Shown here piece after piece: positions 1,229 to 34,912 of a DNA stretch of 64,000 nt. The translations under genes were made by a program, and so were the position numbers. The notes beneath the pieces are model-generated. The model was not told where the DNA came from. It did not search any database and saw only the letters and a list, made by a program, of their open reading frames with translations. Positions within the stretch are counted from its first letter, which is position 1. Every line of letters begins with the position of its first letter. Location of the stretch: assembly GCA_963704535.1 (NCBI GenBank), contig OY969916.1:3830841-3894840 (forward strand), in the 5' to 3' direction. This stretch comes from an uncultured Chloroflexia bacterium. Lineage in GTDB: Bacteria > Chloroflexota > Chloroflexia > Chloroflexales > Roseiflexaceae.

Positions 1229-2461
1229 ATGTCAGGGCTACTGTTAATCCCGGCCATCATCTTCGGCGTCTTGCTGCTCGTCGTCTTCATGTCCGGGTTC
1301 CTCCGCTATATCCCCAACAACAAGGTTGGCATTGTGGAGAAGCTTGTAAGCGGTCGCGGGTCGGTGAAATCCGGATTTATTGCCCTAAAAGGTGAGGCCG
1401 GTTTCCAGCCTGATGTTCTTCGTGGTGGCTGGCACGTGTTCATCCCTTTCCAATACCGCATTCACAGCGTCCCGCTTGTGACCATTCCCCAGGGCAAGAT
1501 CGGCTACATCTTCGCGCGTGACGGTCTACCGCTCCAGCCCGCACAGTCATTGGCTTCCAATGTTACGGCCAATAATTTTCAGGATGTGGGAACCTTTTTG
1601 CAAAACGGTGGGCAACAGGGACCACAACGCCAGATTTTGCGTGAAGGTACGTATGCCTTAAATCTGGCGGAATTCGTCGTGATTACCGAAGATAGCGTCT
1701 TTTATCTACCGTTGAGCCGCGAGGAAGAAGCTACGTTCAAGCGCATGGCCGAAGTCATCAAAGAGCGCGGCGGTTTTCAGCCGGTGATTATCAAGGGCGC
1801 CGATGACCTTGTCGGTATTGTCACTGTCCACGATGGCCCATCGCTCCCCCAGGGGGAGATCATCGCACCGACGGTCGGCAACGAATCCGCCGACCAGGAG
1901 ACCTATCACAACACCTTTCAAGACCCCGAGCGCTTCCTGAAGGCCGGCGGTATGCGTGGGCGACAGCTTCAGGTACTGGTCGAGGGTACATACTATATCA
2001 ATCGGCTGTTTGCCACCGTCGAGATGATACCGAAAACGGTGGTCGAGGTCGGTAATGTGGGCGTGGTCGTGTCGTACACAGGTGACGTCGGCGCGGACCT
2101 GTCGGGCGAGGAGTACAAGCACGGCGAGATGGTGAAGCAGGGCAGCCGCGGCGTGTGGAATACGCCCCTGCTGCCGGGCAAGTACGCGTTTAACACCTAT
2201 GCCGGCAAAGTGCTCATGGTGCCCACGACCAATATCATCCTCAAGTGGAATAAGAGCGAAAGCGGCGCGCACCGATTAGATGAGAACCTGTCGGAAATCT
2301 CGCTGATCACCAAGGACGCCTTCGAGCCATCACTGCCGTTGTCGGTCGTCGTGCATATCGACTACCGGCAAGCGCCGCTGGTCATCCAGCGCTTCGGCGA
2401 TGTCAAGCGGCTGGTCGAGCAGACCCTTGACCCGATGGTTTCGGCATATTTTAAGAACTAG
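1229..2461 (+). pseudogene. Flotillin/SPFH (band-7) family protein, N-terminal 410-aa fragment truncated at the element junction
   Basis: It has an N-terminal TM helix and an SPFH-like body. It is collinear with, and ~95 % identical to, residues 1-410 of the full-length 681-aa paralog at 30978..33023. It ends ...SAYFKN* exactly where the serine recombinase gene abuts. The continuation KNVGQ... is found at 34064. Confidence 0.7.
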
Positions 2462-4094
2462 AGGAATTAGATCGCAGCAAGGGAATACTCACTACGTCGT
2501 CACGTAGGATACATTGTAGCCGAAGCCATATCTCCCCGGATTTCCTTACAACCTCCACCCGAACATCAAGCCCATCCACCACCGTCCGCTTGGCGTCAAA
2601 CCGCTCCTCAATCGCTGCTAAGTGCTCCCCGAGCTGGTATGAGAAGGCAATCAGGCTGTTGATTGTGTCATCGGTTAAGGGCGTCTCTTTTTCTTGTTCT
2701 AATTTCCTAATTTCCTCAGTTGTAAGCTGAAGTTTGCGATTCTGTTCGGAAATCAGCTCCTCAACTATCCCTTCGGGCATGCCTTTCGCGTACAGTGTTC
2801 CAATCCTTTTCAGCTCTGCTTCAATCTCTCCCTTGTGTTCGTAGAGCGTTCGGAGGCGTTCCAAAACGCCGCTCCCGGCGTCCCGCTGTCCCTGCTGGAT
2901 TTCTTGCAGCTTGCGCTCAAGGATTGCAGGATTGGCTATCTCCTCTTTTACCCAAGACCAAACCCTATTATCAAGCTCTGTGACATGGACTGGCGGCATG
3001 TCACAGCTATGCGCCCGATTGTGGGCTGCGGTTCGCCCAGGACAGCGGTAGAAATGCCAAGCATATTCAGTAATCGTGCCGTCTTTCAGCTTATGCGCCT
3101 TGCCCGTACTGATTGAGCGCATCTTGTACCCACATTCACACGTCACCCGTCTGCCTACAAGATAGTCAAAGCGCGCTCCCCGGTTTGACAGGGGACGCCC
3201 TTGATCCATGCGGCGTTGGGCAGCGTTGAATAATTCCTCATCAACAATGCGAGGCACCGGGACACCGACCCACGTATCCCGATCCCGATTGGCAAGTGGC
3301 TGACCGTTGACTGCCTTATAGCGGAACTGGTAAAAAATACCGTTATATGCGCTATGCCGAATAATTTTGTGAATCGTTGCCCTGCTCCACTGAGCGTACC
3401 CGCGTATTTTCATGTGGACTCGGCCGGGGATGAGGTCTTGCGGCGTTGGAATACCACGTTCTGTTAACCGCTCGGCAATTCGTAGAGTTGAGAGCGGCCC
3501 TGATTCCCCATCGCCGACAACATACCAGGTAAAAACTTGGCGGATAATCTTTGCCTGTTCCTCATTGACCACAAGGCTTGCGTTTCTTCCCTGTCCGACT
3601 TTGTTATATCCGTATGGTGGGCGGCCAAGCCCTATCCACTTACCGGCAGCAACTTTATTCTTCCTGCCCTGATCAGTACGCTCGACAATATCATCTGCTT
3701 CTATCTCAGCCATGATGTACTGGAGGTCTTCAGGGAGGCGCTGGCGGGCTGTCTTCCCGCTGATTTGCCGGGTTGACGCATAGTGAATGTCCTTGCCTGC
3801 CCTTCTGATGCGCTCACGAAGCACCACTGAGTTCACATAGTTACGATGTAGCCGGTCAAACTTCCACGTCACGAGCACATCTGCCTCATCACGCTCAAGC
3901 ATCTGACAGGCTTCTTCTAACCCATCACGTTCCAGCTTGCGGCCGGTCATATCATCTTTAAACTCGGCAACAATGGCTAGCCCTGTCTCAGCATCATATT
4001 GCCGCATCTGTTCAAGCTGGTAGTCAAGGGAGTAGAGTTCAGCCTGGCGGGGAGTGGACACGCGGGCGAGGTTGATAGCACGCTTGGAGGACAT
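2451..4094 (-). CDS. Large serine recombinase (resolvase/invertase N-domain, recombinase domain, zinc ribbon/coiled-coil)
   Basis: The N-terminus is MSSKRAINLARVSTPRQ..., a catalytic-Ser resolvase motif. A recombinase domain follows (GRPPYGY...), then a Cys-containing segment (CECGYKM...C) and a coiled-coil C-terminus. Its last 3-4 codons and stop cross the presumed attL into host sequence. Confidence 0.85.
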   Translation of the reverse strand: MSSKRAINLARVSTPRQAELYSLDYQLEQMRQYDAETGLAIVAEFKDDMTGRKLERDGLEEACQMLERDEADVLVTWKFDRLHRNYVNSVVLRERIRRAGKDIHYASTRQISGKTARQRLPEDLQYIMAEIEADDIVERTDQGRKNKVAAGKWIGLGRPPYGYNKVGQGRNASLVVNEEQAKIIRQVFTWYVVGDGESGPLSTLRIAERLTERGIPTPQDLIPGRVHMKIRGYAQWSRATIHKIIRHSAYNGIFYQFRYKAVNGQPLANRDRDTWVGVPVPRIVDEELFNAAQRRMDQGRPLSNRGARFDYLVGRRVTCECGYKMRSISTGKAHKLKDGTITEYAWHFYRCPGRTAAHNRAHSCDMPPVHVTELDNRVWSWVKEEIANPAILERKLQEIQQGQRDAGSGVLERLRTLYEHKGEIEAELKRIGTLYAKGMPEGIVEELISEQNRKLQLTTEEIRKLEQEKETPLTDDTINSLIAFSYQLGEHLAAIEERFDAKRTVVDGLDVRVEVVRKSGEIWLRLQCILRDDVVSIPLLRSNSSSS

Positions 4095-4618
4095 GGGAGG
4101 CTCCTTTCAGTGGCTCAAGGCAAGAGCCCTTGCGGATTGTACCTTCTAGAAAGACAGCACGGTTTTCCTTGCGCTCAACCACCGATACGCTCATCCGTTC
4201 GCCCTTAGTCTACCACTAAAATACTAGTTGTCAACACATTCTAAAGTTGTGATTCAGGCTACGAATGTTGACCTGCTCCGATATGCGGTTGTATAAGTCA
4301 GCATGGCTTGTCTATTTCTGCCTGAATGCGAGCCGTTTACCTTACAGACCCGCAGCACTGCCGGTTTGTTGTTAGCAGTACTGGGGTAGTGACATTTCAT
4401 CGTACCCTGTGTTAGAGTGCAAATCGGAAGCAGAATTAGCCTGAACACAAGTGCGTCTTCAGGGTTGTTTCCGCTTCCATCGTGGCTTGCATGCAGTGAC
4501 GATCGCTCATTCCTCCTCATCAACGAGGCGGCGTTTTGGATTCCGATCCATCGGAATGCAATGCGCCGCTTACGGGAGCGGCGAGTAGCTGCCGCGTCAA
4601 ACGCGGAGGAGGAAATCG

Positions 4619-5206
4619 GTGGATATTCGCATACCAGAGGAGCTGCGGACGAGCATTCCGCAACTAGACACGGCATCCGAGCAGGAAGACCCAATGGTCT
4701 GGGCCAGGTTCTCTAGTGAGGCCCTTGGCACAACGTGGTACATCATTGCCGCGACGTTTCTGGAAACCGACGCCATTTTCTATGGCTACATTGTCGGCTG
4801 GGACGAGGAGTTGACCTACTTCAATCGCTCTGACTTGGAGTTGCTCGCAGCCCAGGAAGATGCAGCGATTGAGTACGATGCAACCTTCACACCCTGCCGT
4901 CTCTCTGAGGTGGTAGCGCGTGAGCGAGGCGATGGCCCCAAGTTCCCACTCGGGCGACTTGTTGCCACGCCTGGTGCTCTGGCAGCGTTTGAGGCGAATA
5001 AGCAAAGTCCGACCATCTTTGTACGCCGGCACCTGAAAGGCGACTGGGGCGAAGTGGACGTACACGATGTGCAGGAGAACGAGTTCTCCCTCATTAACGG
5101 CCTACGGCTCTTGTCGGCCTACACCCTGAAGGATGGCACCCGTATCTGGATTATTACCGAGGCGGATAGGTCGGCAACGACTATTTTACTGCCAAGTGAA
5201 TACTAG
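4619..5206 (+). CDS. DUF2958-like plasmid/ICE-associated protein
   Basis: The segment TTWYIIAATFLETDAIFYGYIVGWDEELTYFNRSDLELL matches the WYxxE...FGxVxGxExELGYFSLxEL signature as recalled from memory. The C-terminal half (GDWGEV...WIITEADRS.TTILLPSEY) resembles a plasmid-borne domain. Confidence 0.4.
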   Translation: MDIRIPEELRTSIPQLDTASEQEDPMVWARFSSEALGTTWYIIAATFLETDAIFYGYIVGWDEELTYFNRSDLELLAAQEDAAIEYDATFTPCRLSEVVARERGDGPKFPLGRLVATPGALAAFEANKQSPTIFVRRHLKGDWGEVDVHDVQENEFSLINGLRLLSAYTLKDGTRIWIITEADRSATTILLPSEY

Positions 5207-5549
5207 GCACGAAACACGATGCAAGCTTGGGGCTGGTACAGGACACACCTGGCCAGCCCTTTTTCGTGGTCACTTGCTCTTGTTCTTACTGGTGATAACG
5301 CCCGTTATCAGAATAGGCTTTTCCTGTACACCCCCATCTCCCACAACTATCCACAGCCCAGATGTGCTATACTTGTGGCTTCAGTTCTGCCACTTAGGAG
5401 TGCGGGTTTGCCAATGAACGACGAACTTCGGTAGATAGTCATTGAGCCGCTGCGTCGCAGGAATGAGCAGCCTGCTGGGCTACACACCCAAGCCCTCGCG
5501 TAGCGGATCATTGTGTGTAGGCATGTAGTAGCAGTCAAGGTACCATGTT

Positions 5550-5858
5550 TTGATCGCCCTCGATAGCTCGTATGTAATCCAATCGATACTTCATTCGGAG
5601 ATGACAATGAGCACTATAAAATTCAGACCATCGGATTTTATGCGTGCAAGGCGCCCCACATTATTTTCAGATACAACGGTAAAAGAAAGGTTTATACTCT
5701 CTGAAAGTATGTTGGAGTACCACCTTGACACCCTAACCAGTCGGAAGCAGGAAAACGACTTTGAGAACTATTGCCGGCGTTTGGCTGAAAAAGAGATATG
5801 CCCTAATTTGCTGCCTCAGTCTGGGCCGGTTGGCGGCGGGGACAGCAAAGTAGATAGT
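5550..5858 (+). pseudogene. Mrr_cat-like (PD-(D/E)xK) nuclease-fold protein, 5' portion; the gene is interrupted by an IS insertion and resumes at 8214..8507
   Basis: The frame continues exactly across the 3-bp TSD (AGT=Ser) from ...GGGDSKVDS to SENYPVADAIAQ.... The reconstructed ~200-aa product has an E...GGGDSKVD...SAKKK layout and a C-terminus (YDLIYFITNQF...IALHGIEV) that resemble the Mrr catalytic domain. The region is AT-rich. Confidence 0.4.
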
Positions 5859-6133
5859 AGACATTATCAAGGTTGGCGGTATACTGTCCGGGATGTTCTT
5901 TCACGGAGTGAAATAATGCCAAAGTTCGACACCATTTTGCAGAATGAGCGGCGCTTACGCGCCTTTACCGGCCTGGATACAGCCACCTTCACAGCCTTCT
6001 TACCCGATTTTACCAAGGCAATGCAACACTATCTCAAGGGCACGACCCTTGATGGCTACGTCCGAGAAGGCGACCGCGCGATTACCTACGCCAACAGCCC
6101 GCTACCCACAGCCTCTGATCGGCTGCTATTCAT

Positions 6134-7461
6134 CTGTAGTTTTGCAAAGTTGAACCACACGCGCTCCTGTAGTAGGATAGCCCCATGCGGATCCGTGCCA
6201 GATGAATCACCACCAGGAGCGGGTATGCCAGCGATTGTTGAGTTCCCAAGCGTCGTGCAAGACCTCCTGGTCCAATACGCAGACCTGTTTGCCAACCAGC
6301 CCGAGCGCCAGCACTTCGCTGAGTATCTGACCGGCCTGTTCATTGCTGAACGCAAAACCGTCAGCGGTATCAACCGCGAGTTTGCAGTCACGACAGACCA
6401 GTCCTGCCTGAACCGCTGGATCACTGAGGTTGAGTGGGAGGAAAAGGCGCTCAACCAGCGGCGCCTCGAGCTGCTGCAACGCGACTCTGCCACCCACTAC
6501 ACCAAGAATGGCGTCATCGCGATTGATAACACCCTCATCGATCACGACGGCAAGCTGATTGAAGATGTCGGCTGGTTCTGGGATCATGCTGAGAAGCGGC
6601 ACCTGATTGCCCACGACTACTTGATCGCCAACTACGTCTGCGCTTCCGGCAAGCACTATCCGCTGGAGTTCCGCCGCTTTCGCAAGAAGGACACCTGTGC
6701 CGCCACAGGCAGTCTCTTCAAGAACCACACCGTCCTGTGTCAAGAACTGGTCGATTGGGTCGTGGAACAGAACATACCGGGCGATTTCACCTTCGATAGT
6801 TACTTCACCCATGCCGACATTCTCAACCACATCGACGGTTATGGCCGCAATTACGTCGGTGATCTGAAGTTCAATCGTACTATCAACGTCGATGGACGCG
6901 ACTGGAAAGCCAGTGAATGGGTGAAGGCCGAACTGGGACCGCTGTGTCGGCGCAAAACGACCGTCGACGGCAAAGAGCAATGGTACTTCACCAAAAGTAT
7001 TCGCATTCCGGGCGTCACGCACACGGTGCGGATTGTGGTGCTGTGGAAAGGGCAACGGGATGCCGAACCACGCAAGATCTTGATTACCAATCGCACCTAT
7101 TGGGAAGTGCATCGCATCCTCAAGACGTATCGCAAACGCTGGACAGGAACGGAGACCTTCCATCGGGACGGGAAGCAGCATCTCGGCATGGGCGATTGTC
7201 AGCTCAGGAAGGGCGAGAGCCAGACACGGCATATGTATCTCGTATTCCTGGCGTACAGCGCCTTGATGACCCAGTTGCGGCACGACCGTGCGCAGGAATG
7301 GGCTCAGGCACGCCTAATGACCATCGGCGAGTCCTGTCGCGCCATGTCTCGCGAGACCTTGGGCAAAACGATCGCCTGGGTGGTTGAGCAGGTTCAGCAA
7401 GGGCAGAGTCTGTCCGATATCAAGGCCCATTTGGCCCTACCCTAACTTTGCAAAACTACAG
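6134..7461 (+). mobile_element. IS701-family (IS4 superfamily) insertion sequence, copy 1, nested inside the IS5-family element
   Basis: It has perfect 18-bp IRs, CTGTAGTTTTGCAAAGTT and AACTTTGCAAAACTACAG. It is flanked by a duplicated TTCAT that is present only once in the intact IS5-family copy (…gctattcatcctcacc…). Confidence 0.75.
6225..7445 (+). CDS. IS701-family DDE transposase (copy 1)
   Basis: It is identical in length to the transposase at 18184..19404, with 2 aa differences. An N-terminal motif QHFAEYLTGLFIAERKTVSG is present. The 631-aa ORF at 5550..7445 in the track is an in-frame chimera of the nuclease fragment, IS5 orfA and this transposase. Confidence 0.8.
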   Translation: MPAIVEFPSVVQDLLVQYADLFANQPERQHFAEYLTGLFIAERKTVSGINREFAVTTDQSCLNRWITEVEWEEKALNQRRLELLQRDSATHYTKNGVIAIDNTLIDHDGKLIEDVGWFWDHAEKRHLIAHDYLIANYVCASGKHYPLEFRRFRKKDTCAATGSLFKNHTVLCQELVDWVVEQNIPGDFTFDSYFTHADILNHIDGYGRNYVGDLKFNRTINVDGRDWKASEWVKAELGPLCRRKTTVDGKEQWYFTKSIRIPGVTHTVRIVVLWKGQRDAEPRKILITNRTYWEVHRILKTYRKRWTGTETFHRDGKQHLGMGDCQLRKGESQTRHMYLVFLAYSALMTQLRHDRAQEWAQARLMTIGESCRAMSRETLGKTIAWVVEQVQQGQSLSDIKAHLALP

Positions 7462-8213
7462 TTCATCCTCACCTATCTCAAGCAGAATGCTATCCAAGAG
7501 GTGCATGGGCAGCTCTTCGGCATGAGTCAGTCAAATGTCAGTAAATGGGTGCGGCTATTACTGGATATTCTTGAACGATGCCTTGGCCGCCCAACGGCTG
7601 TTGCCAGCACGCAGCGCAGCAGAACTGGCAGCGCGGTTACGAGACGAAACGCTCGAACTCGATCCAGAGGCTCCCCTTTTTTCTGTCACGACGCTACAGA
7701 GCGACCGATAGCACGACCAAAAGATGCGGAGGAGCAGGAAATCTACTACAGCGGCAAGCAGAAAGACCATACCATCAAGAATGTGCTCATTGTGGATGCG
7801 GCTGGGCGTATTTGGTTTTTGAGCGCCACATATGCCGGCAAAGTTCACGATAAACGGATTGCGGATGAAGCCCAATATCGGCTGCCGGAAGGCAGCGTGT
7901 TGGGGCAAGATAGTGGATTTCAGGGTTTCACACTGCCGGATGTGTTCATCCTCCAACCAAAAAAGAAGCCACGCAACGGCACGCTGACCGAGGACGAGAA
8001 AGCAGAGAATCGCTGGATCTCGCACATCAGAGTGCTGGTCGAGCATAGTATCGGTGGTGTGAAAGTCTATCGGATAGTTCACGATGTAATTCGTCACTGG
8101 TGTCCTTCCATCCGCGATCAGGTAATGCAGATTTGCTGTGGCCTCTACAATCTGCGGCTACGTCATCAGATGGCGGATACAAGCCTATCTGAATCTTGAT
8201 AATGTCTAGTGAG

Positions 8214-8507
8214 AATTATCCGGTTGCGGATGCAATAGCTCAGAGGTGGTATGAGGGGATTCCGCACGAAGCTGGAACGGAAAAATGGGCCTTTGCCTTT
8301 AGTGCAAAGAAAAAATGGCATGACAAGGTGGTGTCTGATGTAGACAAGATCGCCAAACTTCCACGCAAATATGACCTCATTTACTTCATCACGAATCAAT
8401 TTGTTTCTGATAAAAAACGAGCAGAGACTGAACAAAAGTTGATAGCTTTGCACGGAATTGAGGTGCGAAATTCTAGACAGAACCTGGTTAGTGAGACGCA
8501 CATGTGA
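8214..8507 (+). pseudogene. 3' portion of the IS-interrupted Mrr_cat-like nuclease gene
   Basis: The frame is continuous with 5550..5858 once the IS and its TSD are removed. See the feature at 5550. Confidence 0.4.
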
Positions 8508-11196: not shown

Positions 11197-11672
11197 TCTA
11201 ACCTTTTCATAAAGACATGAAAGGATCGTCGTGATCCGACATAGTAGACTTTATCAAGATGTAAGTAATTGATCCTCTAGCATTTTGATGACAAAGACGA
11301 CTTGCCATTAGCGGAATTTACCACCGTACAGGCTAGTTTTCCATTACAATATCGTTGCGACGAGCCTTCTATTCCCATAATCCCTATTTCCGGTCCAGTT
11401 CCACGATGTTACGTTCTATGGCCCAATTTCGCACGAATGCTCCATAGCGCAAGCGCCACCACCACGAATGAAAATACTGTGCTATCCTCACTTCAGACCA
11501 TGTGCGTGTCAGACGTCGACAACGATCTGGTGCCGGGGAGTCCGGGCACGAATGTGATCTAGCGCCTGTAGGTATCACCGTCTGTTGCCCCATCTTTTTG
11601 GGAGCACGCAAGGGAAACTCTTACTTGTTGACCCAGGCGCTCCGTGCATGGTCACGTTGCAAGGAGGTCAGG

Positions 11673-12917
11673 ATGCACATCTTGTATCAGCGCTGTTGTG
11701 GTTTGGACGTGCATAAACAGCGGGTCAGCGCCTGCTTGTTACTGCCGGGCAATGATCGTCGTCAGCAGAAGGTTGCACGCTCCTTTGGGACCACCACCAG
11801 CCAACTCCAAGCCCTCAAGGAGTGGTTAGTCGCAGCAGACTGCACTCACGTCGCCATGGAAAGCACCGGGCCATACTGGAAACCAGTCTACAACATCTTG
11901 GAAGACAGCTTTACTCTGATCCTGGCGAATGCCCAACACATTAAGGCCCTACCAGGACGCAAGACCGATGTTGGTGATGCCGAATGGATTGCAGATCTGC
12001 TCCAGCATGGTCTGATACGCAGTAGTTTCATTCCATCGCGACCCCTGCGTGAACTGCGCGAACTGACCCGCTATCGCAAAACCTTGATCCAAGAACGCTC
12101 CGCAGAAATCAACCGGGTGCAGAAAGTGCTGGAGGGAGCCAATATCAAACTCGGCTCAGTCGCAACCAATGTTTTGGGGGTGTCTGGACGGGCGATGCTG
12201 GATGCGCTGGTCAACGGCACCACAGATAGTAACGTTTTAGCCGACTTGGCTCAGGGCAGGTTGCGCAAGAAGATACCCGAACTCCAAGCCGCCTTGAACG
12301 GGCTGATCGCAGATCATCAACGCTTCGTGCTGGGCCAACAGTTAGCGCATATTGATAGTTTGAACGCGATGATCGTCACGTGCAGCGCTGAGATAGAGCA
12401 GCGCTTTGCCGACCATCAGGAGCTGATCAGACGGCTCTGCACGATACCGGGGGTCGGGCAACGAACAGCCGAAACGCTGCTGGCAGAGATTGGTACGGAT
12501 ATGAGTCGCTTTCCGAGTGCCAAACATCTGGCCTCCTGGGCTGGTTTGTGTCCAGGCAATCACGAGAGCGCGGGGAAGCGTAAATCAGGCAAAACGCGCA
12601 AAGGCAGCCGCTGGTTGCGGGAAGCGTTAGTAGAGGCGGCACGAGCTGCGGCACGAACCCGCACCACCTACTTGGCAGCCCAATATCATCGTTTAGCTGC
12701 ACGACGAGGCGGTAACAAGGCCGCCGTGGCGGTCGCACATACGATTCTGGTCATCAGCTATCATCTCATCCGTGATGGAGGCGAGTACGAAGATTTGGGG
12801 GCGACGTACTACGACGAAATGGATCGCGAGCGAGTTCAGCGGCGTTTAGTGCGCCGTCTTGAAGCGATGGGCTGTCGGGTCACGCTCGAACCAGACCAGC
12901 CGGCAGCAACAGCATAA
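11673..12917 (+). CDS. IS110-family transposase (DEDD type)
   Basis: It begins [23 protein letters not shown]..., which is the IS110 N-terminal DEDD domain. The C-terminus has the ...[16 protein letters not shown]...[15 protein letters not shown] helix-hairpin-helix region. An AGGAGG RBS lies at 11662. IS ends are not defined because IS110 lacks IRs. Confidence 0.85.
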
Positions 12918-19418: not shown

Positions 19419-19477
19419 AGTAGACAGTAGGTGGTTGGGAACGATCGAATAATCTCTTACTATACAAGGAGGGACAC

Positions 19478-26327: not shown

Positions 26328-27839
26328 TTGCCAGACAGCAGCCGGAGCATGGGTATTCACCTGATGGCTGGCCGGGGATCAGGCAAGTCGCGGCTGATGG
26401 GCCGCATCATTGGCTGGTATGATCTCATCCGCAGTGTTCCACTGGTCATCCTTGATCCGGCCGGGCCGACGATTGACAACCTGCTCGATAAAATCCTCCG
26501 GCTGCCACAGCGCCAGCAAGAAACGCTGCTCTCGCGAGTTGTGTACGTGGATATGAGCGGGAAGGGGACCAGGGTTATCCCGTTCCCGCTTTACTACCGC
26601 TTGGGCGAGGAGAGTCTGTATGAAGTCTCCCAGCGCTTTCTGGATACGGTGCAAAGTGCCGACCCCAATTTGCTGAGTGCTGCCGTGCAGGGCTGGAATG
26701 CCTTGTGGCGGATTGGCACCTACACGGGTATGGTGCTTACTGGGCTTGGCTACCAAATCACCGAGGCGGAAGACTTACTGGCCAACCCGAACGCCTGGAC
26801 TGACCGGCTGCACCAGGCGCTTCAGAGGAATCCAGACGACCTGCTGTCAGCGGTTGCCTTTTTTACCAAGGAATACCCGCATCTGGATAAACGCGAGCGG
26901 GAAATGCTCACCCGGTCGTTTCTCACCAAAATCACGCCGTTTTCGCTGGACCGGCGGCTGACCGCTATGTTCGGCGCGAGTACGCCGGGGATTAATTGGC
27001 GAACCATGATCCGAAACCGGCAAGCAGTCTTATTGGATTTCCGGCGCGTCACCGATCCCCAAGAGCGCCGTTTCAAAATGCTGTGGGTGTTCCAGTCGTT
27101 TTTTGCCTTTATCAAATATCGTGGCGCAGGCCGGCATGTTCCCATCTCATTCATTGTGGACGAACTGGCTAATCTGTCCCACACGCAGGTGCAAGGGGAA
27201 AGCCCATTTGCCAAGGCGCTTGATGAACTCGTCAATGTCTATGCCAGAAACGGCATGATCTGGCTGACGTTGGCCCATCAGGAGCTGTTTCAGCTTGAGG
27301 AACGCATTCAGCCGACGCTGATGAGCCTGGGCACGCAAATCCTGGGCGTGACCTCAGACCGCAATGCAGCACTGGCGATGGCCAGGCAACTCTTTCCGGT
27401 TGATCCGCACCGGGTCAAACGCTATGATGCAGTCTACGCTAGTTTTCAGGGTATCGCCTCGGTCATTGATCAGCGGCCCGTAAATTTCACTCCAGAGGAG
27501 CAGCACTATCTTGCCAGCAACGTCTTTACCGGCAAACGGTTATTTGAGTTTGTCGTCCGACCGGCAGCAGCAGAAGGGGATATTGCCCAAACGCTTTATC
27601 ACATCACCATCAAGAACGTTGATACCGGCCAATGGGTGCAGGAGTGGGCAGTCGCTACGCTTCGCGACCGACTGCGTGACCAGACCGGCATACCAGTCAG
27701 TGACATTCTTGCCGAGATTGCCCAGCGCCGCGATGCTATAATCACTGCATCCCCTGCCTATGCCGACGATATTCCGCCAAACCGATCAGAAGAAGCCGAC
27801 GACGAAGAGGAGCGCCTCAGTGATGAGCGAGTTTGGTAG
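26328..27839 (+). CDS. P-loop ATPase, type IV coupling protein-like (TraD/VirD4/TraG-like) or HerA-like
   Basis: It has a Walker A (AGRGSGKSRLMG), a VILDPAG segment and a Walker B (ISFIVDELAN). It overlaps the downstream Replic_Relax gene by 17 nt. Confidence 0.45.
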   Translation: MPDSSRSMGIHLMAGRGSGKSRLMGRIIGWYDLIRSVPLVILDPAGPTIDNLLDKILRLPQRQQETLLSRVVYVDMSGKGTRVIPFPLYYRLGEESLYEVSQRFLDTVQSADPNLLSAAVQGWNALWRIGTYTGMVLTGLGYQITEAEDLLANPNAWTDRLHQALQRNPDDLLSAVAFFTKEYPHLDKREREMLTRSFLTKITPFSLDRRLTAMFGASTPGINWRTMIRNRQAVLLDFRRVTDPQERRFKMLWVFQSFFAFIKYRGAGRHVPISFIVDELANLSHTQVQGESPFAKALDELVNVYARNGMIWLTLAHQELFQLEERIQPTLMSLGTQILGVTSDRNAALAMARQLFPVDPHRVKRYDAVYASFQGIASVIDQRPVNFTPEEQHYLASNVFTGKRLFEFVVRPAAAEGDIAQTLYHITIKNVDTGQWVQEWAVATLRDRLRDQTGIPVSDILAEIAQRRDAIITASPAYADDIPPNRSEEADDEEERLSDERVW

Positions 27840-28776
27840 CAAGGCGACGAAGCGCTTGCCGCAGCTCCAGCGTGCGAGCAAAGAGAGTTTGCCGAGCTTT
27901 CGGCTCACTGAGCGGGATAATGCCATCATGGAAAAGGTCTACACCTATCGCGCGCTGACCACCGAGCACATTGAAGCACTCTGCTTTTCGCCAACCACAC
28001 GGTCCAAGTGTAAGTTGCGGCTCAAGCTGCTCTATCATCACGGCTTTCTGCTGCGCACTGAGCAGCCGCAAAGTCTGATAGAAGGAAGAAAACCGTTTGT
28101 TTATTGGCTGGACAAAAAAGGTGCTGAACTGATCGCCATCAATGAGGGGATTGAATTCTCAGAGGTAGCGTGGCGACCAAATATCCATAAAGTCGGGCCG
28201 CAGTTTCTCTACCATTTGCTGGATACCAACACTGTGCGGATAGCCATCACGGTGGCAGCAGAGCAGCACGGTATGACCATCGTGGACTGGCGGGACGAGG
28301 AGACGCTGCGCAAAGACCACGCCAACGACTTCGTGACCATCAAGGGACCGCAGGGCGGCGAGCAGAAAACGACGGTCATTCCTGACGACTATTTCGTGCT
28401 TGAGGTGCCTATCCCAGCAGAAGGAAGATCAATTTACCCCAGGCTATTTGTCGAGATTGACAGGCGTACTGTGACCGGCGAAGCCTCCGTCTCCAACCAG
28501 AGCCAACGCGATTGGGCACACAAAGTCCAGGCATACGTCGCCTACTACCACTCTGACGCGCATAAAAAGCGGTATGGCAGTACGGCTGGTCGCGTCATTA
28601 CGATCACCACCGGCGAGAAACGCGCTATGAACTTGAAGGCAATCACGGAGCGGGCAGGGGGGAAGGCTCGCTTCTGGTTCACGACCTTTGAACAGATAAC
28701 ACCAGAGGCAATCCTCACTGCGCCGATTTGGGCGGTTGCCGGCCGCGAGAGCCGGTATACGCTCACCGCCGAATAG
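27823..28776 (+). CDS. Replication-relaxation (Replic_Relax) family protein
   Basis: It contains the winged-helix signature LTERDNAIMEKVYTYRALTTEHIEALCFSP...CKLRLKLLYHHGFLLR. Confidence 0.55.
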   Translation: MSEFGSKATKRLPQLQRASKESLPSFRLTERDNAIMEKVYTYRALTTEHIEALCFSPTTRSKCKLRLKLLYHHGFLLRTEQPQSLIEGRKPFVYWLDKKGAELIAINEGIEFSEVAWRPNIHKVGPQFLYHLLDTNTVRIAITVAAEQHGMTIVDWRDEETLRKDHANDFVTIKGPQGGEQKTTVIPDDYFVLEVPIPAEGRSIYPRLFVEIDRRTVTGEASVSNQSQRDWAHKVQAYVAYYHSDAHKKRYGSTAGRVITITTGEKRAMNLKAITERAGGKARFWFTTFEQITPEAILTAPIWAVAGRESRYTLTAE

Positions 28777-29844
28777 CAAAGAAATCGCCTGACCTGCCCC
28801 TGGCGTGATAGCGTGTACAGAGTGAGAAAGTGCTATCATTGCGTCGTGCTTGCTCAAAACCCAAGTGCCAAGCCGTGCTTAGCAAGAGCACCGCTAAACC
28901 CCGTTCCAAGTGCCGTAGAAGAACAAGGCTGGGTGCATGGTCAGGCGATTGTATCGTGAACGATACCTGTCAGTTGTACACGGTTGCCAATGAGAGCGGG
29001 GCAATAATCCGGGAAGAGTTTTGTAAGAAGCTGAAAAACGAACACGTGCGTCGTCGTTCACCTATCCCTCGAAGCAGGCTGGCGTCTGAAGCTACCATTG
29101 CTGTTTCAACCAGTGGCCATAGGCGCGCGGTCTTGACGTGGCGCGCAATCTGTAGGGTATCCCGCACGGGAGGACGCGGAGCGGGACGGGCATACGGCAG
29201 CCAGTGCATGGAAGTAGCATCCCCCCCGTGCGGGTGCGTGGAAGTGTAGCGCGCCGTCAAGACCAAGACGAGCGCGCGCCGTGTGGCTGCGCAGCCGCAA
29301 TGTGGATTGTTCGAGGTCCGGGTATGGGGCACCGGCAGGCAGGGCAGCGGGTGCCAGTTTGCGTCACGTTCTAGAATAGCCGGAGCTGCTCGGCTGGCTG
29401 CTCCTTTGGCTTTTCCTTTTTGGCCTTGCGCGGCTTCTTCTCGGGCTCCCCTTTGCCTCCCTGTGAGCTGCCAGTGGGCTGCTGCATGATGTAGTCCAGT
29501 ATGCGGCTGATTTGTGACCATTGTTCGGTACTCATGGCTTTCCTCCTGGTGAGCCATTACACAGCGTAGTACAGTCCCCAGCCGAAAGCGGGCAGGGAGA
29601 GCGTTTTTGTTTCCGCCGCGCCGTAAACTTTGCAGGAGGCGAAGTGAGCGTACCGAAGGGGATAGGGAGCGGAAACCATGTCTTCTGACCAGCTCTTTCG
29701 GGGTGGAGCGGGTGAGGAGTGGTGGTTGGAAAGACGGTCAGAAGACGGTTGGAGCGACCTATACGCGAACGAGCCGACTGCTAGCATAGACATTATCAAG
29801 GTTGGCGGTATACTGTCCGGGATGTTCTTTCACGGAGTGAAATA

Positions 29845-30306
29845 ATGCCAAAGTTCGACACCATTTTGCAGAATGAGCGGCGCTTACGCGCCTTTACCGG
29901 CCTGGATACAGCCACCTTCACAGCCTTCTTACCCGATTTTACCAAGGCAATGCAACACTATCTCAAGGGCACGACCCTTGATGGCTACGTCCGAGAAGGC
30001 GACCGCGCGATTACCTACGCCAACAGCCCGCTACCCACAGCCTCTGATCGGCTGCTATTCATCCTCACCTATCTCAAGCAGAATGCTATCCAAGAGGTGC
30101 ATGGGCAGCTCTTCGGCATGAGTCAGTCAAATGTCAGTAAATGGGTGCGGCTATTACTGGATATCTTGAACGATGCCTTGGCCGCCCAACGGCTGTTGCC
30201 AGCACGCAGCGCAGCAGAACTGGCAGCGCGGTTACGAGACGAAACGCTCGAACTCGATCCAGAGGCTCCCCTTTTTTCTGTCACGACGCTACAGAGCGAC
30301 CGATAG
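29845..30306 (+). CDS. IS5-family transposase OrfA (HTH)
   Basis: It is 153 aa. The downstream orfB lies in the -1 frame. Confidence 0.7.
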   Translation: MPKFDTILQNERRLRAFTGLDTATFTAFLPDFTKAMQHYLKGTTLDGYVREGDRAITYANSPLPTASDRLLFILTYLKQNAIQEVHGQLFGMSQSNVSKWVRLLLDILNDALAAQRLLPARSAAELAARLRDETLELDPEAPLFSVTTLQSDR

Positions 30307-30794
30307 CACGACCAAAAGATGCGGAGGAGCAGGAAATCTACTACAGCGGCAAGCAGAAAGACCATACCATCAAGAATGTGCTCATTGTGGATGCGGCTGG
30401 GCGTATTTGGTTTTTGAGCGCCACATATGCCGGCAAAGTTCACGATAAACGGATTGCGGATGAAGCCCAATATCGGCTGCCGGAAGGCAGCGTGTTGGGG
30501 CAAGATAGTGGATTTCAGGGTTTCACACTGCCGGATGTGTTCATCCTCCAACCAAAAAAGAAGCCACGCAACGGCACGCTGACCGAGGACGAGAAAGCAG
30601 AGAATCGCTGGATCTCGCACATCAGAGTGCTGGTCGAGCATAGTATCGGTGGTGTGAAAGTCTATCGGATAGTTCACGATGTAATTCGTCACTGGTGTCC
30701 TTCCATCCGCGATCAGGTAATGCAGATTTGCTGTGGCCTCTACAATCTGCGGCTACGTCATCAGATGGCGGATACAAGCCTATCTGAATCTTGA
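30141..30794 (+). CDS. IS5-family transposase OrfB (DDE_Tnp_4/Harbinger-like DDE domain), probably expressed as OrfAB by a programmed -1 frameshift at CCCTTTTTTC (~30259-30268)
   Basis: The genuine DDE region begins at ~CHDATERPIARPKDAEEQEIYYSGKQKDHTIKN. The upstream part of this frame is Arg-rich junk. The slippery T-run sits at the point where the two frames exchange sense. Confidence 0.65.
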   Translation: MGAAITGYLERCLGRPTAVASTQRSRTGSAVTRRNARTRSRGSPFFCHDATERPIARPKDAEEQEIYYSGKQKDHTIKNVLIVDAAGRIWFLSATYAGKVHDKRIADEAQYRLPEGSVLGQDSGFQGFTLPDVFILQPKKKPRNGTLTEDEKAENRWISHIRVLVEHSIGGVKVYRIVHDVIRHWCPSIRDQVMQICCGLYNLRLRHQMADTSLSES

Positions 30795-30977
30795 TAATGT
30801 CTCATGAACAGGCGGCGAAACAAAACCCCCGCCGCGATGAACGCAACGAGGGCGATGCTTTTTACAGCGTGTTTGCGCTGGAAATCGGCGCCTGAGAGCA
30901 AAACAAATGCTGCTACAGCCACAAGACTATAGCAGCATTCATTCAGGTGTTGGAAAGGTGTTGCCGCCCCTACTCTG

Positions 30978-33023
30978 CTAGTTTGCCCCGTTCACCGGTT
31001 TGAGCGGTGTGGTCGGCGTTGTGGCCGGAGCGACAGGCGCGTCCTTGGGCGGCTCGGCCAGTAGGCGCTGCACAATCTGGTCACGCATCGCAGCGACCTC
31101 CGGCCGTGAAGCGTTGGCATTGCCACCGCTGTTGACCTGCACGCCCATCTTCTCGGAGAGCAGCATGGCCAGCAGCCCCTCCATCAAGCTGCTGCCGCTT
31201 GAAGCGCCGTTGCCGTTTCCACCACCCGAGATCGAGATGCGCGGCACCACATCCACCTTCGCCGCCTCGATCGCCTCGGCGAAGCGGTTCATCACCTGCT
31301 GGGTGACCTGGAACTGCGGTCCACCATAGGCGCGGACTTTCTCTTCGATCGCGATTGCCTCGGCAATACCCACACGCGCTGCCTTCTCGGCCTCCGCCTC
31401 GGCGAGTGTCCGAATGGTAGCGGCTTGCTGCACTGCACGCTGATAGTCGGCCTTGCCCTGGTTGCCCTGGACGGTAATGCTGATTTCCGACTCGGTGAGC
31501 GCCTGCTGCTGGCGGGCGCGCGACTCGGCCTCGCGTAGCTCGCGCTCCTTGACCGCCGCCTTCTCCTGACGATTGTAGGTTTCAATCTGCTCTTCAGCGA
31601 TTTGCCGCGACCGCAACTGCGTCAGGATTTGTTCGATCTTCTGGTCCCCGGCTGATGAGGCCGGTGTACCAATTAAGACCTCTTCAAGCTCCAGATTGTA
31701 GCGGGCAAATTTCTCGCGCATCTGCTCACCCGCCAAACTCTGGATGACACTGCGCTCCTGAATGAGCTGAATAAGTGTCCTCACCTGCCCGACGTTTTTA
31801 AAATATGCACTTACCATTGGGTCAAGGGTCTGCTCGACTAGCCGCTTGACATCGCCGAAGCGCTGAATAACGAGCGGTGCCTGCCGATAGTCGATATGCA
31901 CGACGACTGAGAGCGGCAGCGATGGCTCGAAGGCGTCCTTGGTGATGAGCGAGATTTCCGATAGGTTCTCATCCAATCGGTGCGCGCCGCTTTCACCCTT
32001 ATTCCACTTGAGGATGATATTGGTCGTCGGCACCGTGAGCACTTTGCCGGCATAGGTGTTGAAGGCGTATTTGCCTGGCAGCAGGGGGGTACTCCACACA
32101 CCACGGCTGCCTTGCTGTACCATTTCGCCGTGCTTATACTCCTCGCCAGAGATATCCACACCGACATCTCCGGTGTACGAGACAACCACGCCCACGTTGC
32201 CGACCTCGACCACCGTTTTCGGTATCATCTCGACGGTGGCAAACAGGCGGTTGATATAGTAGGTACCCTCGACCAACACCTGAAGTTGCCGGCCACGCTG
32301 CCCGCCCGCCGCGAGGAAGCGCTCAGGGTCTTGAAAAGTGTTGTGATAGGTCTCCTGGTCGGCCGATTCGTTGCCGACTGTCGGTGCGATGATCTCCCCC
32401 TGCGGCAGCGAGGGGCCGTCGTGGACGGTGACGATACCGACCAGATCATCGGCGCCCTTGATAATCACCGGCTGGAAGCCGCCACGCTCTTTGATGACCT
32501 CGGCCATGCGCTTGAATGTAGCTTCCTCCTCGCGGCTCAGCGGTAGATAGAAGACGCTATCTTCGGTAATCACCACGAATTCCGCCAGATTTAAGGCATA
32601 CGTACCTTCACGCAAAATCTGGCGTTGCGGCCCTTGTTGCCCGCCGTTTTGCAGAAACGTTCGCACGTCCTGAAAGTTGTTCGCCGTAACATTGGATGCC
32701 AATGACTGTGCGGGCTGGAGCGGTAGCCCATCACGCGCGAAGATGTAGCCAATCTTGCCCTGGGGAATGGTCACGAGTGGGACGCTGTGAATGCGATATT
32801 GGAAGGGGATGAACACGTGCCAGCCGCCACGAAGGACATCAGGCTGGAAACCGGCCTCACCTTTTAGGGCAATAAATCCGGATTTCACCGACCCGTGACC
32901 GCTCACGAGCTTCTCCACAATGCCAACCTTGTTGTTGGGGATGTAGCGGAGGAACCCGGACATGAAGACGACGAGCAGCACGACACCGATGACGATCGCG
33001 GGGATCAACAGTAGCCCTGACAT
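30978..33023 (-). CDS. Flotillin/SPFH-family protein (YqiK/FloT-like), full length 681 aa, carried inside the element
   Basis: It has an N-terminal TM helix, an SPFH domain, an EA-rich coiled-coil (AEAEAEKAARV) and a Gly-rich C-terminus. It is ~95 % identical and collinear to the two split halves that flank the element. Confidence 0.8.
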   Translation of the reverse strand: MSGLLLIPAIVIGVVLLVVFMSGFLRYIPNNKVGIVEKLVSGHGSVKSGFIALKGEAGFQPDVLRGGWHVFIPFQYRIHSVPLVTIPQGKIGYIFARDGLPLQPAQSLASNVTANNFQDVRTFLQNGGQQGPQRQILREGTYALNLAEFVVITEDSVFYLPLSREEEATFKRMAEVIKERGGFQPVIIKGADDLVGIVTVHDGPSLPQGEIIAPTVGNESADQETYHNTFQDPERFLAAGGQRGRQLQVLVEGTYYINRLFATVEMIPKTVVEVGNVGVVVSYTGDVGVDISGEEYKHGEMVQQGSRGVWSTPLLPGKYAFNTYAGKVLTVPTTNIILKWNKGESGAHRLDENLSEISLITKDAFEPSLPLSVVVHIDYRQAPLVIQRFGDVKRLVEQTLDPMVSAYFKNVGQVRTLIQLIQERSVIQSLAGEQMREKFARYNLELEEVLIGTPASSAGDQKIEQILTQLRSRQIAEEQIETYNRQEKAAVKERELREAESRARQQQALTESEISITVQGNQGKADYQRAVQQAATIRTLAEAEAEKAARVGIAEAIAIEEKVRAYGGPQFQVTQQVMNRFAEAIEAAKVDVVPRISISGGGNGNGASSGSSLMEGLLAMLLSEKMGVQVNSGGNANASRPEVAAMRDQIVQRLLAEPPKDAPVAPATTPTTPLKPVNGAN

Positions 33024-33479
33024 GGCCTACTTCCTTTCTGGGAGTGCCGAGTTCGACACTGGCAAGGCGTCAGTGTTTGGCACATGAGTATATACGGAAT
33101 GCCGGCAGTGCGGTTGCATCATTCATTGCAGGAGTGTAGCGGTTTGAACAACACCCACACTATAAACGTTCGGCAGGCTATAATTTAGATGGGTACGTCA
33201 ACGTTCTACGCAGCTTTACTTTGCGTCATTCCTACACTAAGCAGCACAAAGGCTTCCAATGTAAAATCGATGCTTCGTGATCTGTTTTCTAATGTCCAAA
33301 AGTAAAGAAACGCACGAAAGTCACTACCACACGTAGTAGAATAGATCATAAAAAAGCTACGGCTCACGAAGAACCGTAGCTTATCATTGGCCCCATCTCG
33401 CATGCCGAAGATTGGGACTACGCCGTTACCCCTGTCTCTCACAAGCTGAGTTGTTGAGCGCAGACAGGGGCGCCGCTGT

Positions 33480-33839
33480 CTAGCCCATCGGGCTCACCAA
33501 TTGAAAGTAGTTGCCATCCGGATCGGCCAAGGTCGCTATCCATCCGCCGCCCATTTCATAGGGTGCCTTGATTACCACGCCGCCAAGCGCTTTGATCCGC
33601 TCGAACTCCTCCTTGACCTGGCTGGTCTCAAAATTAAGCATCACCCGTCCGGGGTCCTTGGCGTTCCCTCCCATTTCGGAATGCTCTAAGACCGACAGAT
33701 ACGCACTGCCGACTTGCCAGCCATAGAAGCCATTCTCACTATCAACCATGTCGGCCGGCTTTCCGATGACCTTCTCATAGAAGTTCGCCAACTCCTTCGG
33801 TTGTTTGGTTCCGAGCATGACCGAATTCAAATTCAACAT
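33480..33839 (-). CDS. VOC/glyoxalase-bleomycin-resistance family protein
   Basis: It is 119 aa, reading MLNLNSVMLGT...GWQVG...ATLADPDGNYFQLV, a typical VOC βαβββ layout. Confidence 0.6.
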   Translation of the reverse strand: MLNLNSVMLGTKQPKELANFYEKVIGKPADMVDSENGFYGWQVGSAYLSVLEHSEMGGNAKDPGRVMLNFETSQVKEEFERIKALGGVVIKAPYEMGGGWIATLADPDGNYFQLVSPMG

Positions 33840-34063
33840 GCTGAACCTCTCCTTTCTGCAAGATTATCCATGCCACCACTCGCGATAGAAGAACGTCTGT
33901 TCTCCTATGATACCATGTACGTCAAGGTACAATCCAGAAGACGGCTCTACTCTTTCCGAGATGGTATTTGGTTGGCGTTAAATCTGTGCTGCTAGGAGCA
34001 GCAATGTGTTGTACTGACCCTATGCAGCGCGAAGGAGTATCGTTGCTGTGAAAGAAAACACAA

Positions 34064-34912
34064 GTGTTTGTTGACTGTTTTCTCTATTCCAAGAATGTGG
34101 GCCAAACCCGCACGCTCATCCAGCTCATTCAGGAGCGCAGCGTCATCCAGAGCCTGTCGAGCGAGCAGATGCGCGAAAAGTTTGCCCGCTACAACCTGGA
34201 ACTGGAGGAGGTCTTGATTGGCACGCCGGGCTCGTCGCACGGCGACAGCAAGATCGAACAAATCTTGACGCAACTTCGCTCGCGGCAAATCGCCGAAGAG
34301 CAGATTGAAACCTACAATCGCCAGGAGAAGGCGGCGGTCAAGGAGCGCGAGCTGCGCGAGGCCGAGTCGCGCGCCCGCCAGCAGCAGGCGCTCACCGAGT
34401 CGGAAATCAGCATTACCGTCCAAGGCAACCAGGGTAAGGCCGATTACCAGCGCGCGCTTCAGCAGGCAGCCACCATTCGAGCACTCGCCGAGGCGGAAGC
34501 CGAGAAGGCAGCGCGTGTGGGTATTGCCGAGGCAATCGCGATCGAAGAGAAAGTCCGCGCCTATGGTGGACCGCAGTTCCAGGTCACCCAGCAGGTGATG
34601 AATCGCTTCGCCGAGGCGATCGAGGCGGCAAAGGTGGACGTGGTGCCGCGCATCTCGATTTCCGGTGGCGGAAGCGGCAACGGCGCTTCAAGCGGCAGCA
34701 GCCTGATGGAGGGGCTGCTGGCCATGCTGCTCTCCGAGAAGATGGGCGTGCAGGTCAACAGCGGTGGCAATGCCAACGCTTCACGGCCGGAGGTCGCCGC
34801 GATGCGTGACCAAATTGTGCAGCGCCTGATGGCCGAGCCGCCGAAAGACGCGCCTGCCACTCCGGCTACAACTCCGACCACACCGCTCAAGCCGGTGAAC
34901 GGGGCAAACTAG
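34064..34912 (+). pseudogene. Flotillin C-terminal 282-aa fragment; the 3' half of the gene interrupted by the element
   Basis: It continues ...KNVGQTRTLIQLIQERSVIQ... from the 1229..2461 fragment. It is 95 % identical to residues ~410-681 of the internal paralog. Confidence 0.7.

Follow-up and report, generated by a model that had tools for sequence, protein, structure and literature searches.

A serine-recombinase element that splits a flotillin gene in a filamentous Chloroflexota genome and carries a complete copy of its target

Integration in the middle of a gene normally costs the host that gene, and the known ways round this cost are to target and rebuild gene ends, or to excise on cue. 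Large serine recombinases (LSRs) commonly disrupt genes without repair; gene-integrating phages that use them include phiC31, Bxb1 (in groEL1) and A118 (in comK). We analysed a 64,000-nt stretch (hereafter the window) of contig OY969916.1 from the uncultured Chloroflexia bacterium assembly GCA_963704535.1 (positions 3,830,841 to 3,894,840), in which a flotillin gene is split by a 31.6-kb insert that begins with an LSR gene and contains a second, full-length flotillin gene. On balance it appears probable that the insert is an LSR element that cuts flotillin and carries a complete copy maintained by selection, its present form owing also to gene conversion and to an added cassette.

Elements that rebuild the end of the gene they enter are exemplified by e14 or phage 21 in icd and by islands targeting dusA or tRNA genes. 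Composite islands of the staphylococcal cassette chromosome (SCC) type, SCCmec, use Ccr LSRs, and SCC-like cassettes that lack a recombinase accrete in tandem at their attachment (att) site. Integrase genes that span attP are known from Mx8 (intP/intX) and SSV1-type elements, both of which encode tyrosine recombinases. The att sites of LSRs have been surveyed (e.g. PMC10083194), and gene-intervening elements excised by LSRs include skin in sigK, SPbeta in spsM, gin in gerE and the XisF/fdxN system (PMC5025042, PMC5499854, PMC5595907). Furthermore, a 2026 paper describes the Psychrobacillus phage Perkons, which integrates in the flotillin-like gene floA and has its att core inside the integrase open reading frame (ORF) (PMC13245101). 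A limited literature search revealed no precedent for an LSR element with a full copy of its own target.

The split flotillin gene and its recombinase

Two halves of one flotillin gene lie in the same orientation 31.6 kb apart, split at ...YFKN·VGQ... (a raised dot marks the break here and below), a layout read from this DNA in an earlier note and confirmed by the ORFs and their translations. The 5' half of the host gene (H; 1229..2457, plus strand) comprises codons 1-409 and two bases of codon 410. It is preceded by a promoter/5' untranslated region (1116..1228, plus) that is 88-90% identical to 33134-33024, upstream of the element copy. The 3' half (34096..34912, plus) comprises codons 410-681, after which the gene's own terminator reaches ~34992. 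Rejoining 1229-2457 and 34096-34912 gives a 2046-nt ORF of 681 codons, with no frameshift or stop in either half and no flotillin bases gained or lost at the junctions; the insert, including one copy of the core, measures 31,638 bp. Integration reduced the gene to an N-terminal stub of 410 aa and a separate, orphan C-terminal half. The called ORF at 1229..2461 (plus) encodes a 410-aa protein ending ...DPMVSAYFKN, with a stop codon (2459-2461) supplied by the element, and the called ORF at 34064..34912 (plus) reads ...FLYSKN·VGQTRTLIQ... and on to a normal C-terminus. The target is not regenerated: the stub stops one codon past the crossover and the 3' half begins without a flotillin N-terminus. 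On the right-hand side, the host flotillin is followed by genes for a Ser/Thr kinase, FabF (above the NCBIfam cut-off), RNase III and dTDP-4-dehydrorhamnose reductase (RmlD), the last three being housekeeping genes that mark this flank as ordinary chromosome. GC content is 52% in the element (without the carried copy) compared to 61.7% in the host flanks.

The AAGAA core that the earlier note recognised at both junctions is indeed present, at 2453..2457 in attL and at 34091..34095 in attR, and the crossover is placed at its first AA. The attB B arm GGTTTCGGCATATTTT (2437..2452, plus) is kept in attL, where the core is followed by the attP P' arm (2458..2482, plus), which overlaps the final codons of the recombinase gene; the attP P arm TTTGTTGACTGTTTTCTCTATTCC (34067..34090, plus) is kept in attR. 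The element-side arms form the imperfect inverted repeat that had been proposed, with 11/16 positions of attP complementary about the first core AA, a score equalled by 0.05% of window positions. For attB, 9/16 positions are complementary about the same AA (equalled by 1% of window positions). The two sites are hence short imperfect palindromes with no more than a small central core in common, and each junction is an exact hybrid of them. TCC·AA is conserved across all related arms, and the CTAATTC motif of the P' arm recurs at the 3' ends of homologous LSR genes (L081, L103). It is therefore firmly supported by the sequence that the 31.6-kb insert is an integrative element, apparently moved by its own LSR through recombination of attP and attB inside flotillin at codons 409/410. 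Excision is predicted to give a rebuilt attB ...TATTTTAAGAATGTGGG... and a circular attP ...CTATTCCAAGAACTAGAGG....

The attB rebuilt from the window junctions (ATGGTTTCGGCATATTTTAAGAATGTGGGCCAAACCCGCACG) differs at 4 of ~42 positions from an uninterrupted site in contig L085 of a close relative (ATGGTTTCGGCCTATTTTAAGAATATAGGCCAAACTCGCACG), the flotillin of which is 86-89% nt identical to the host halves. Further uninterrupted alleles were found in the protein collection (P0074, P0075, P0082). A contiguous flotillin gene, for which the earlier note looked to relatives, thus exists, although not with shared flanks: comparison at the DNA and protein level found no flanking genes in common with L085 or with 80 flotillin loci of representative genomes, and for this reason an identical empty locus was not seen.

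Sequences from other metagenomes (P0076, P0090/L102, P0107, P0109, P0112) are interrupted at this codon too, with different arm variants. P0076, a 410-aa stub from another sample, differs from H at 12/276 residues but from the uninterrupted P0075 at only 5/276. Four other 3'-half ORFs start with arm-derived peptides (...VVYFLHSKN·VGQV, ...GFVDSFLYSKN·VGQT, ...FVICFLNSKN·VGQV and ...YRNCFLYSKN·VGQV). ORFs starting M(V/I)(S/A)AYFKN were considered as a second break point and dismissed as the result of gene calling on truncated contigs. Logan contig L101, from a different run, crosses the left junction and is 99.9% identical over window 2023-4250.

The LSR gene (2451..4094, minus) encodes 547 aa when integrated. 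The protein contains the serine recombinase catalytic domain (PF00239, E=1.9e-26, residues 8-153) with an N-terminal ...LARVSTPRQ motif and PDB matches to catalytic domains, namely those of an invertase, a resolvase and the TP901-1 integrase. Its C-terminal part contains PF07508 (E=2.6e-16) and PF13408 (24.4 bits, just below the 25.3 cut-off), and homologues share the same three Pfam domains. Similarity to NCBIfam models, best for CcrB and CcrA and also seen for XisF, is weak and far below cut-off. LSR homologues at 45-69% identity are common in metagenomes; no match to the LSR or to flotillin was found in viral contigs. A 354-aa fragment of a second recombinase (P0046), 50% identical to the window LSR, is located on the same contig outside the window.

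That the last LSR codons run across the junction, as stated in the earlier note, is borne out by the TAA stop (2451-2453), which straddles it, the core contributing one base and the flotillin side two. For the circular form, the ORF is predicted to continue across attP to 570 aa, with the tail ...SSSSWNRENSQQTLVFSFTATILLRAA (ending ...ILLRAA). Many LSR homologues also end right after ...S(S/T)S, corresponding to an integrated state in which the target provides T·AA or T·GA, while others (P0005, P0022, P0024) run on with W(N/T)..., as the window ORF would across attP. In sister LSRs the crossover falls at the same codon of the recombinase gene.

Contig L103 (LSR 62% identical) holds an intact attP, in which GATTTCTCTCGTTCTT and GGAATAAAGAAAAGAG meet at the crossover, and L083 (58% identical) holds a prophage adjoining a truncated dapA-like gene. 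L081 (66% identical) is a 5.2-kb element with both ends seen (3646 and 8866) and a cargo of GNAT acetyltransferases, a hydrolase and an HTH gene. Its site, TATTTCAAGAT, has a motif resembling the flotillin TATTTTAAGAA and lies 4 codons upstream of the stop in a gene for a 323-aa secreted protein, the C-terminus of which changes from ...YFKIIGN to ...YFKILPN. By comparison of these loci, one LSR family evidently includes an element that repairs the 3' end of its target (L081) and one that cuts flotillin at codon 410/681 and repairs nothing at the junction. The contrast drawn earlier with integrases that regenerate a target 3' end was too broad: since LSRs commonly disrupt genes without repair, it holds mainly against tyrosine integrases, and also against this sister LSR element.

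The flotillin copy inside the element

The full-length flotillin reported by the earlier note inside the element is present at 30978..33023 (minus), within a transcription unit (C; 30901..33171, minus) that has its own upstream region and terminator hairpin. The 681-aa carried copy aligns to the rejoined host gene without gaps, at 656/681 aa (96.3%) and 1851/2046 nt (90.5%); the near identity claimed previously stands, and the figure of ~95% given for it is too low. Homology between C and H extends ~113 bp upstream and ~80 bp downstream, including the terminator hairpin, so that C retains ~113-150 bp of native upstream sequence. A promoter consensus scan found nothing. The GC content at third codon positions (GC3) is 0.727 in C and 0.739 in H, with 0.55 in the LSR gene. 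Synonymous divergence (dS) between C and H is 0.42, with a ratio of nonsynonymous to synonymous divergence (dN/dS) of 0.058; for C and the element copy of contig L102 (see below) the values are 0.93 and 0.034. Judged by these ratios, the carried copy is under strong purifying selection.

A Pfam Band_7 domain (PF01145, E=1.1e-14, residues 271-486), a hydrophobic N-terminus and an AEAEAEKAA-type region visible in the translation identify C as a member of the SPFH family, and cluster members are named 'membrane protein YqiK' by their sources. As neither NCBIfam nor PDB gave a sequence match, flotillin is assigned at family level only. By its flotillin relatives, the host belongs with filamentous Chloroflexota resembling Kouleothrix and Roseiflexaceae. 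Each of the 80 related loci is the sole flotillin locus of its own assembly, the exception being a gene split over two contigs in Kouleothrix aurantiaca, and no LSR was found near flotillin at any of them. A C-type flotillin, P0077, departs from the family at ~residue 285, suggesting a different disruption.

A second element can be seen in L102, a 2.8-kb contig from another sample that is ~83% nt identical to both window flotillin copies. It presents, in order, a minus-strand flotillin (residues 1-313 visible), its upstream region, a spacer, a P-type arm, TCC·AAAAAC and a plus-strand flotillin 3' half. The stretch from the flotillin start codon to the arm, a few hundred bp long, aligns with window 33015-33320, and the arm has its homologue inside the window element (33274-33297), not in the terminal arm there. 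This homology of arm and spacer indicates a single joining of flotillin gene and arm, in a common ancestor. Conserved carriage of flotillin by the element family is supported by two elements. The earlier idea of a replacement paralog also gains support from this shared layout and homologous spacer; that the replacement is functional is something we infer.

The sequence shows that attP recombined with a quasi-palindromic attB in the chromosomal flotillin, and we propose that the element family carries a complete flotillin unit just inside its original right arm, reading inward. The unit would have been acquired once, long ago, and then kept by strong purifying selection. The carried flotillin presumably supplies the protein in trans, in which case mid-gene integration would cost the host little and the insertion would complement itself. 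Compensation for the broken gene by the carried copy is the most likely reading of these data.

A number of observations weigh against this proposal. Only L102 could be inspected inside, with just the first 313 codons of its copy visible, and in contig L099 a glyoxalase cassette and a Replic_Relax homologue occur without flotillin between them. The expression and function of either flotillin form are putative. Precise excision would restore the host gene, so the carried copy is not strictly needed. The excised form, with a 570-aa LSR, was not found in the protein collection (a weak negative), no candidate recombination directionality factor was identified in the element, and, riddled with insertion sequences (ISs) as it is, the element may no longer be mobile. 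Finally, the carried copy has an attB-like site (31782-31815) of the class used by L102, and its stable carriage therefore requires that the window LSR is inactive on it.

The carried flotillin could instead be an accidental passenger, picked up, for example, along with the IS5-like element beside it or from an earlier host, a possibility we consider unlikely. An IS5-like copy does lie ~100 bp from the 3' flank of the unit in an element full of ISs, the flotillin composition is host-like and not element-like, and neither L099 nor L103 has flotillin near the att site. However, L102 has its copy at the same position, in the same orientation and with a homologous spacer by the right arm at dS ~0.9, which together with the strong purifying selection and the completeness of the unit from upstream region to terminator argues against chance capture. 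L103 is a distant LSR relative in the attP form; the lack of flotillin near its site suggests that a carried flotillin goes with a flotillin target, and the trait has so far been seen only with flotillin-targeting elements.

H and C are mutually closest sequences overall (6/276 and 6/194 aa differences), despite the age of the element copy. Their synonymous differences are over-dispersed (windowed variance 14.2 versus 5.2 in permutations, P<1e-4), with a longest identical run at P=0.014, and reach their highest density around the break and their lowest at the gene ends. Divergence peaks at the att site with 18/60 nt, the gene-wide maximum. In the 120 nt past the crossover H and C are 79% identical, while C and the L102 host allele, as well as H and L085, are 91% identical. 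The carried copy is a mosaic relative to the host halves, a pattern that suggests gene conversion between the two, least effective beside the discontinuity. Gene conversion would help explain why the host halves show no decay, with no excess in relative-rate counts (10-13 amino-acid changes in H versus 7-11); recent insertion, or selection via reversible excision, would explain their intactness too. P0089, a metagenomic flotillin, is a natural mosaic allele with an H-type 5' part and a C-type 3' part.

A further unlikely alternative is that the insert is a gene-intervening element of the skin/sigK, SPbeta/spsM or XisF/fdxN type. Programmed LSR excision would rebuild the chromosomal flotillin, in this scheme the functional gene, in some cells of the filament, the carried copy being secondary. 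The mid-gene insertion with an intact LSR at one end, the host halves free of frameshift, stop or excess amino-acid change, the retention of the insertion in several diverged lineages and the filamentous Chloroflexota host are all consistent with this scheme, for which there are precedents (PMC5499854, PMC5025042, PMC5595907). In contrast, the protein collection yielded no excision products, neither a directionality factor nor a developmental signal was identified, and conversion from the carried copy explains the intact halves equally well. Known elements of this type have no copy of the interrupted gene, and the occurrence of close relatives with and without the insertion (P0076 versus P0075, 5/276 aa) fits ordinary mobility.

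The inverted orientation and short distance between the carried gene and the orphan 3' half (2.3 kb in the window, ~1.5 kb in L102) are conserved, the carried copy has an attB-like site at the same codon (31782-31815), and P0089-type alleles mix an H-type 5' part with a C-type 3' part. These features could reflect a site-specific inversion switch in which the two genes swap C-terminal halves in a shufflon-like manner. We regard such a switch as improbable, since LSRs normally pair attP only with attB, while here an attB-like site would have to pair with attR; no contig has the inverted configuration, homologous recombination explains the mosaic alleles, and the 5' stub 31 kb away would have no role. 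An assembly artefact, be it a chimeric join or the mis-assembled duplication raised in the earlier note, could have been favoured by two 90%-identical copies within 34 kb and by 100%-identical ISs, yet its likelihood is negligible: an independent run gives the left junction at 99.9% identity, at least 5 sequence variants in other samples show this truncation and these types of junction, and the junctions have a precise common core with flotillin bases neither lost nor gained.

On the proposal of a carried, compensating copy, the divergence peak at attB could reflect a copy that resists its own LSR. Two old attB allele classes exist, coding GQT-R-T and GQV-R-T. A 'recoded, immune attB' arising as a post-capture adaptation was rejected: the variant in the copy is an old allele class common to L001, L004 and the L102 host gene. 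The L102 element uses this class, that of the window copy's att region, as its target. Reduced gene conversion beside the break explains the peak equally well, and immunity is thus kept only as the weaker hypothesis.

The right end, a glyoxalase cassette and further contents

The core and element-side arm at the right end of the element are as described in the earlier note, but they do not mark its original end. The present right end is a later-acquired 0.8-kb glyoxalase cassette (G; 33306..34090, minus) with a glyoxalase/VOC gene at 33480-33839 (Pfam Glyoxalase). An attP-like site (R; 33274..33383, minus) is found internally, with a P-type arm (33274-33297), TCC·AA, a P'-like arm TTTCGTGCGTTTCTTTAC and a terminator hairpin (33356-33380). 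R is homologous to the terminal arm and spacer of L102 and to the cassette junctions, and is interpreted as a relic, the putative former right end of the element. In the simplest reading, a cassette circle recombined at the att site of the element, much like the accretion of SCC-like units. The present right arm would then be the cassette arm, and the old arm the internal relic at 33274-33383.

Contigs from many samples match window 33306-34092 at 94-98% identity; the contexts number at least 5 and are unrelated to one another (L086-L100), and in each the homology stops at the crossover. Across five left contexts of the cassette, identity is 93-99% to the right of the crossover and 58-79% to the left, where each has a terminator hairpin followed by TTTCGTG...TTCTT. 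This left arm is similar to an LSR gene's 3' end, and at one junction its final 14 nt agree with L103 at every position (14/14). The cassette junctions therefore appear attP-like, consisting of a P'-like arm and a P arm without a recombinase gene, and the joined ends of a cassette circle are predicted to read ...GTTCTT·GGAATAGAG.... In L094-L096, three attP-like junctions bracket an SRPBCC gene and a glyoxalase gene beside sugar-use genes; the sequence available there has no LSR. In L099, the Replic_Relax homologue (60% aa identity to the window protein) comes after the cassette. The cassette hairpin GCTACGG-TTCTTCGTGAG-CCGTAGC occurs in L097 and L099 as the exact reverse complement of its form in L086, L087, L094, L098 and window 33356-33380, while the flanks keep their orientation.

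Other origins of the cassette junctions were considered and rejected. Integron attC sites do not fit, as the junctions are attP-like by eye with the boundary at the site centre, and the only tyrosine recombinase is Xer-like, scoring 105 bits against the 265 cut-off of the integron-integrase model. Action of the window LSR at another attB was dismissed because the flanks are unlike the flotillin B' arm, and a known RNA leader because Rfam gave one sub-threshold match only. A possible serine-recombinase cassette system is a lead with good sequence evidence.

As a whole, the element looks like an IS-ridden island derived from a plasmid or an integrative and conjugative element (ICE), with an intact recombinase and att sites. 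Adjoining the LSR is a small ORF (4619..5206, plus), the C-terminal part of which is conserved beside the L103 LSR (tblastx 49% over 93 aa) and which has no family match. The element contains at least 6 IS copies, including two pairs at 99.9-100% identity, and one copy is nested in another. An IS5-like IS (DDE_Tnp_4; 5858..8207, plus) is interrupted at 6134-7462 by a 1329-bp DDE_5/DDE_Tnp_1 IS, of which a second copy lies at 18093..19421 (plus). An uninterrupted IS5-like copy (29787..30802, plus) abuts the 3' flank of the carried flotillin unit, ~100 bp away. Self-BLAST equates 5858-6134 plus 7462-8207 with 29787-30802, and 6134-7462 with 18093-19421, at 99.9-100%, which implies recent transposition inside the island. 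Further transposases belong to the IS110 family (11502..12917, plus; PF01548, PF02371), the IS4/IS5 family (13846..14715, minus; DUF4096, DDE_Tnp_1) and another DDE type (22589..23992, plus).

Among the other genes, a NACHT/STAND NTPase (14770..16155, minus; Pfam NACHT) is a possible defence gene with a weak NCBIfam match to antiphage EruA, far below cut-off. The Xer-like tyrosine recombinase (16536..17501, plus; Pfam Phage_integrase) matches NCBIfam XerC, XerD and XerA, all below cut-off. A Replic_Relax protein (27760..28776, plus; PF13814; PHROG 'replication initiation by nicking') points to a plasmid-/ICE-like replication or transfer module. A 912-aa ORF (8458..11196, plus) matches nothing in Pfam, NCBIfam or PHROG; its 41% GC and GC3 of 0.37 are far lower than in the element or the host. 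A 503-aa protein has no PHROG or NCBIfam match. No phage structural genes were found among the element ORFs using Pfam and PHROG.

Several repeats were observed elsewhere in the window. A 3381-aa ORF (46655-56800, minus) includes ~13 diverged repeats, each some 510-520 nt long. Between host genes, a 49-nt intergenic repeat that contains a palindrome, GGAAAAAGGGGGTTTGAGGGGGCAGCCCCCTCAGTCTCCCCCACCCACA, recurs in both orientations (38183-38231, 39011-39059, 44190-44237, 61860-61908), with some copies surrounded by larger 85-125-nt repeats. Within the gene for an ABC-transporter substrate-binding protein (41090-43033), a 12/24-nt tandem repeat (41270-41417) codes for a linker rich in Pro, Ala, Thr and Glu, close to the N-terminus.

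Comparison with known systems

A broader joint reading, conceivable though tentative, is that filamentous Chloroflexota host LSR elements which combine self-complementing gene targeting with att-site capture of attP-only cassettes. In its first part, the att region of the copy would belong to the other attB class (GQV versus GQT), so that the LSR could not cut it, and pressure from the element would help keep both attB classes in the population. In its second part, integron-like arrays would run on a serine, not a tyrosine, recombinase. The attP-only glyoxalase cassette hints at such a serine-recombinase cassette system, which would matter more broadly for gene flow in large Chloroflexota genomes. 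The related attB/attP pairs, with two attB classes and several arm variants, also provide a natural set for the study of how LSR specificity changes.

With gene-integrating LSR prophages and elements, the window element shares the three-domain recombinase, the short quasi-palindromic attB and attP with few central bases in common, and the precise cut that disrupts the target gene without target duplication. Unlike LSR prophages, it carries a full-length, apparently selected paralog of the disrupted gene, and its cargo is plasmid-/ICE-like (Replic_Relax), with no phage genes found. Phage Perkons likewise targets a gene of the SPFH/flotillin family and has its att core in the 3' part of the recombinase ORF, so that integration alters the recombinase C-terminus. 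It differs in host phylum, in being a tailed phage and in its target, a 328-aa FloA compared to the 681-aa YqiK-like protein, and the part of the paper available makes no mention of a carried flotillin copy.

Gene-intervening elements resemble the window element in their mid-gene insertion with an LSR at the edge and intact host halves, but are not known to supply a copy of the interrupted gene. The similarity of the window LSR to XisF is weak, and its element is present in some close relatives and absent from others. The alteration of the LSR ORF end by integration (547 aa integrated, 570 aa predicted for the circle), a family-wide pattern, recalls Mx8 and SSV1; in the window a serine recombinase is involved and only the last 23 codons are affected. 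In a manner recalling SCCmec, a small recombinase-less cassette with att-type bounds would have joined the element at its att site, the former arm surviving as an internal relic, and the best NCBIfam similarity of the LSR is to CcrB/CcrA, albeit far below cut-off. Unlike in SCCmec, the cassette junctions look like complete attP sites (P'-like plus P arm) and not like attB-derived repeats.

End-rebuilding elements, together with L081, keep their target functional, as the window element would. They differ from the flotillin element, which leaves a stub ending in a stop and carries the whole gene separately and inverted. The sister element L081, with its classical 3'-end repair, allows these two strategies to be compared directly within one LSR family. 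If true, an element that brings a complete, selected copy of its own target would represent a third solution to mid-gene integration, beside the rebuilding of gene ends and excision on cue.

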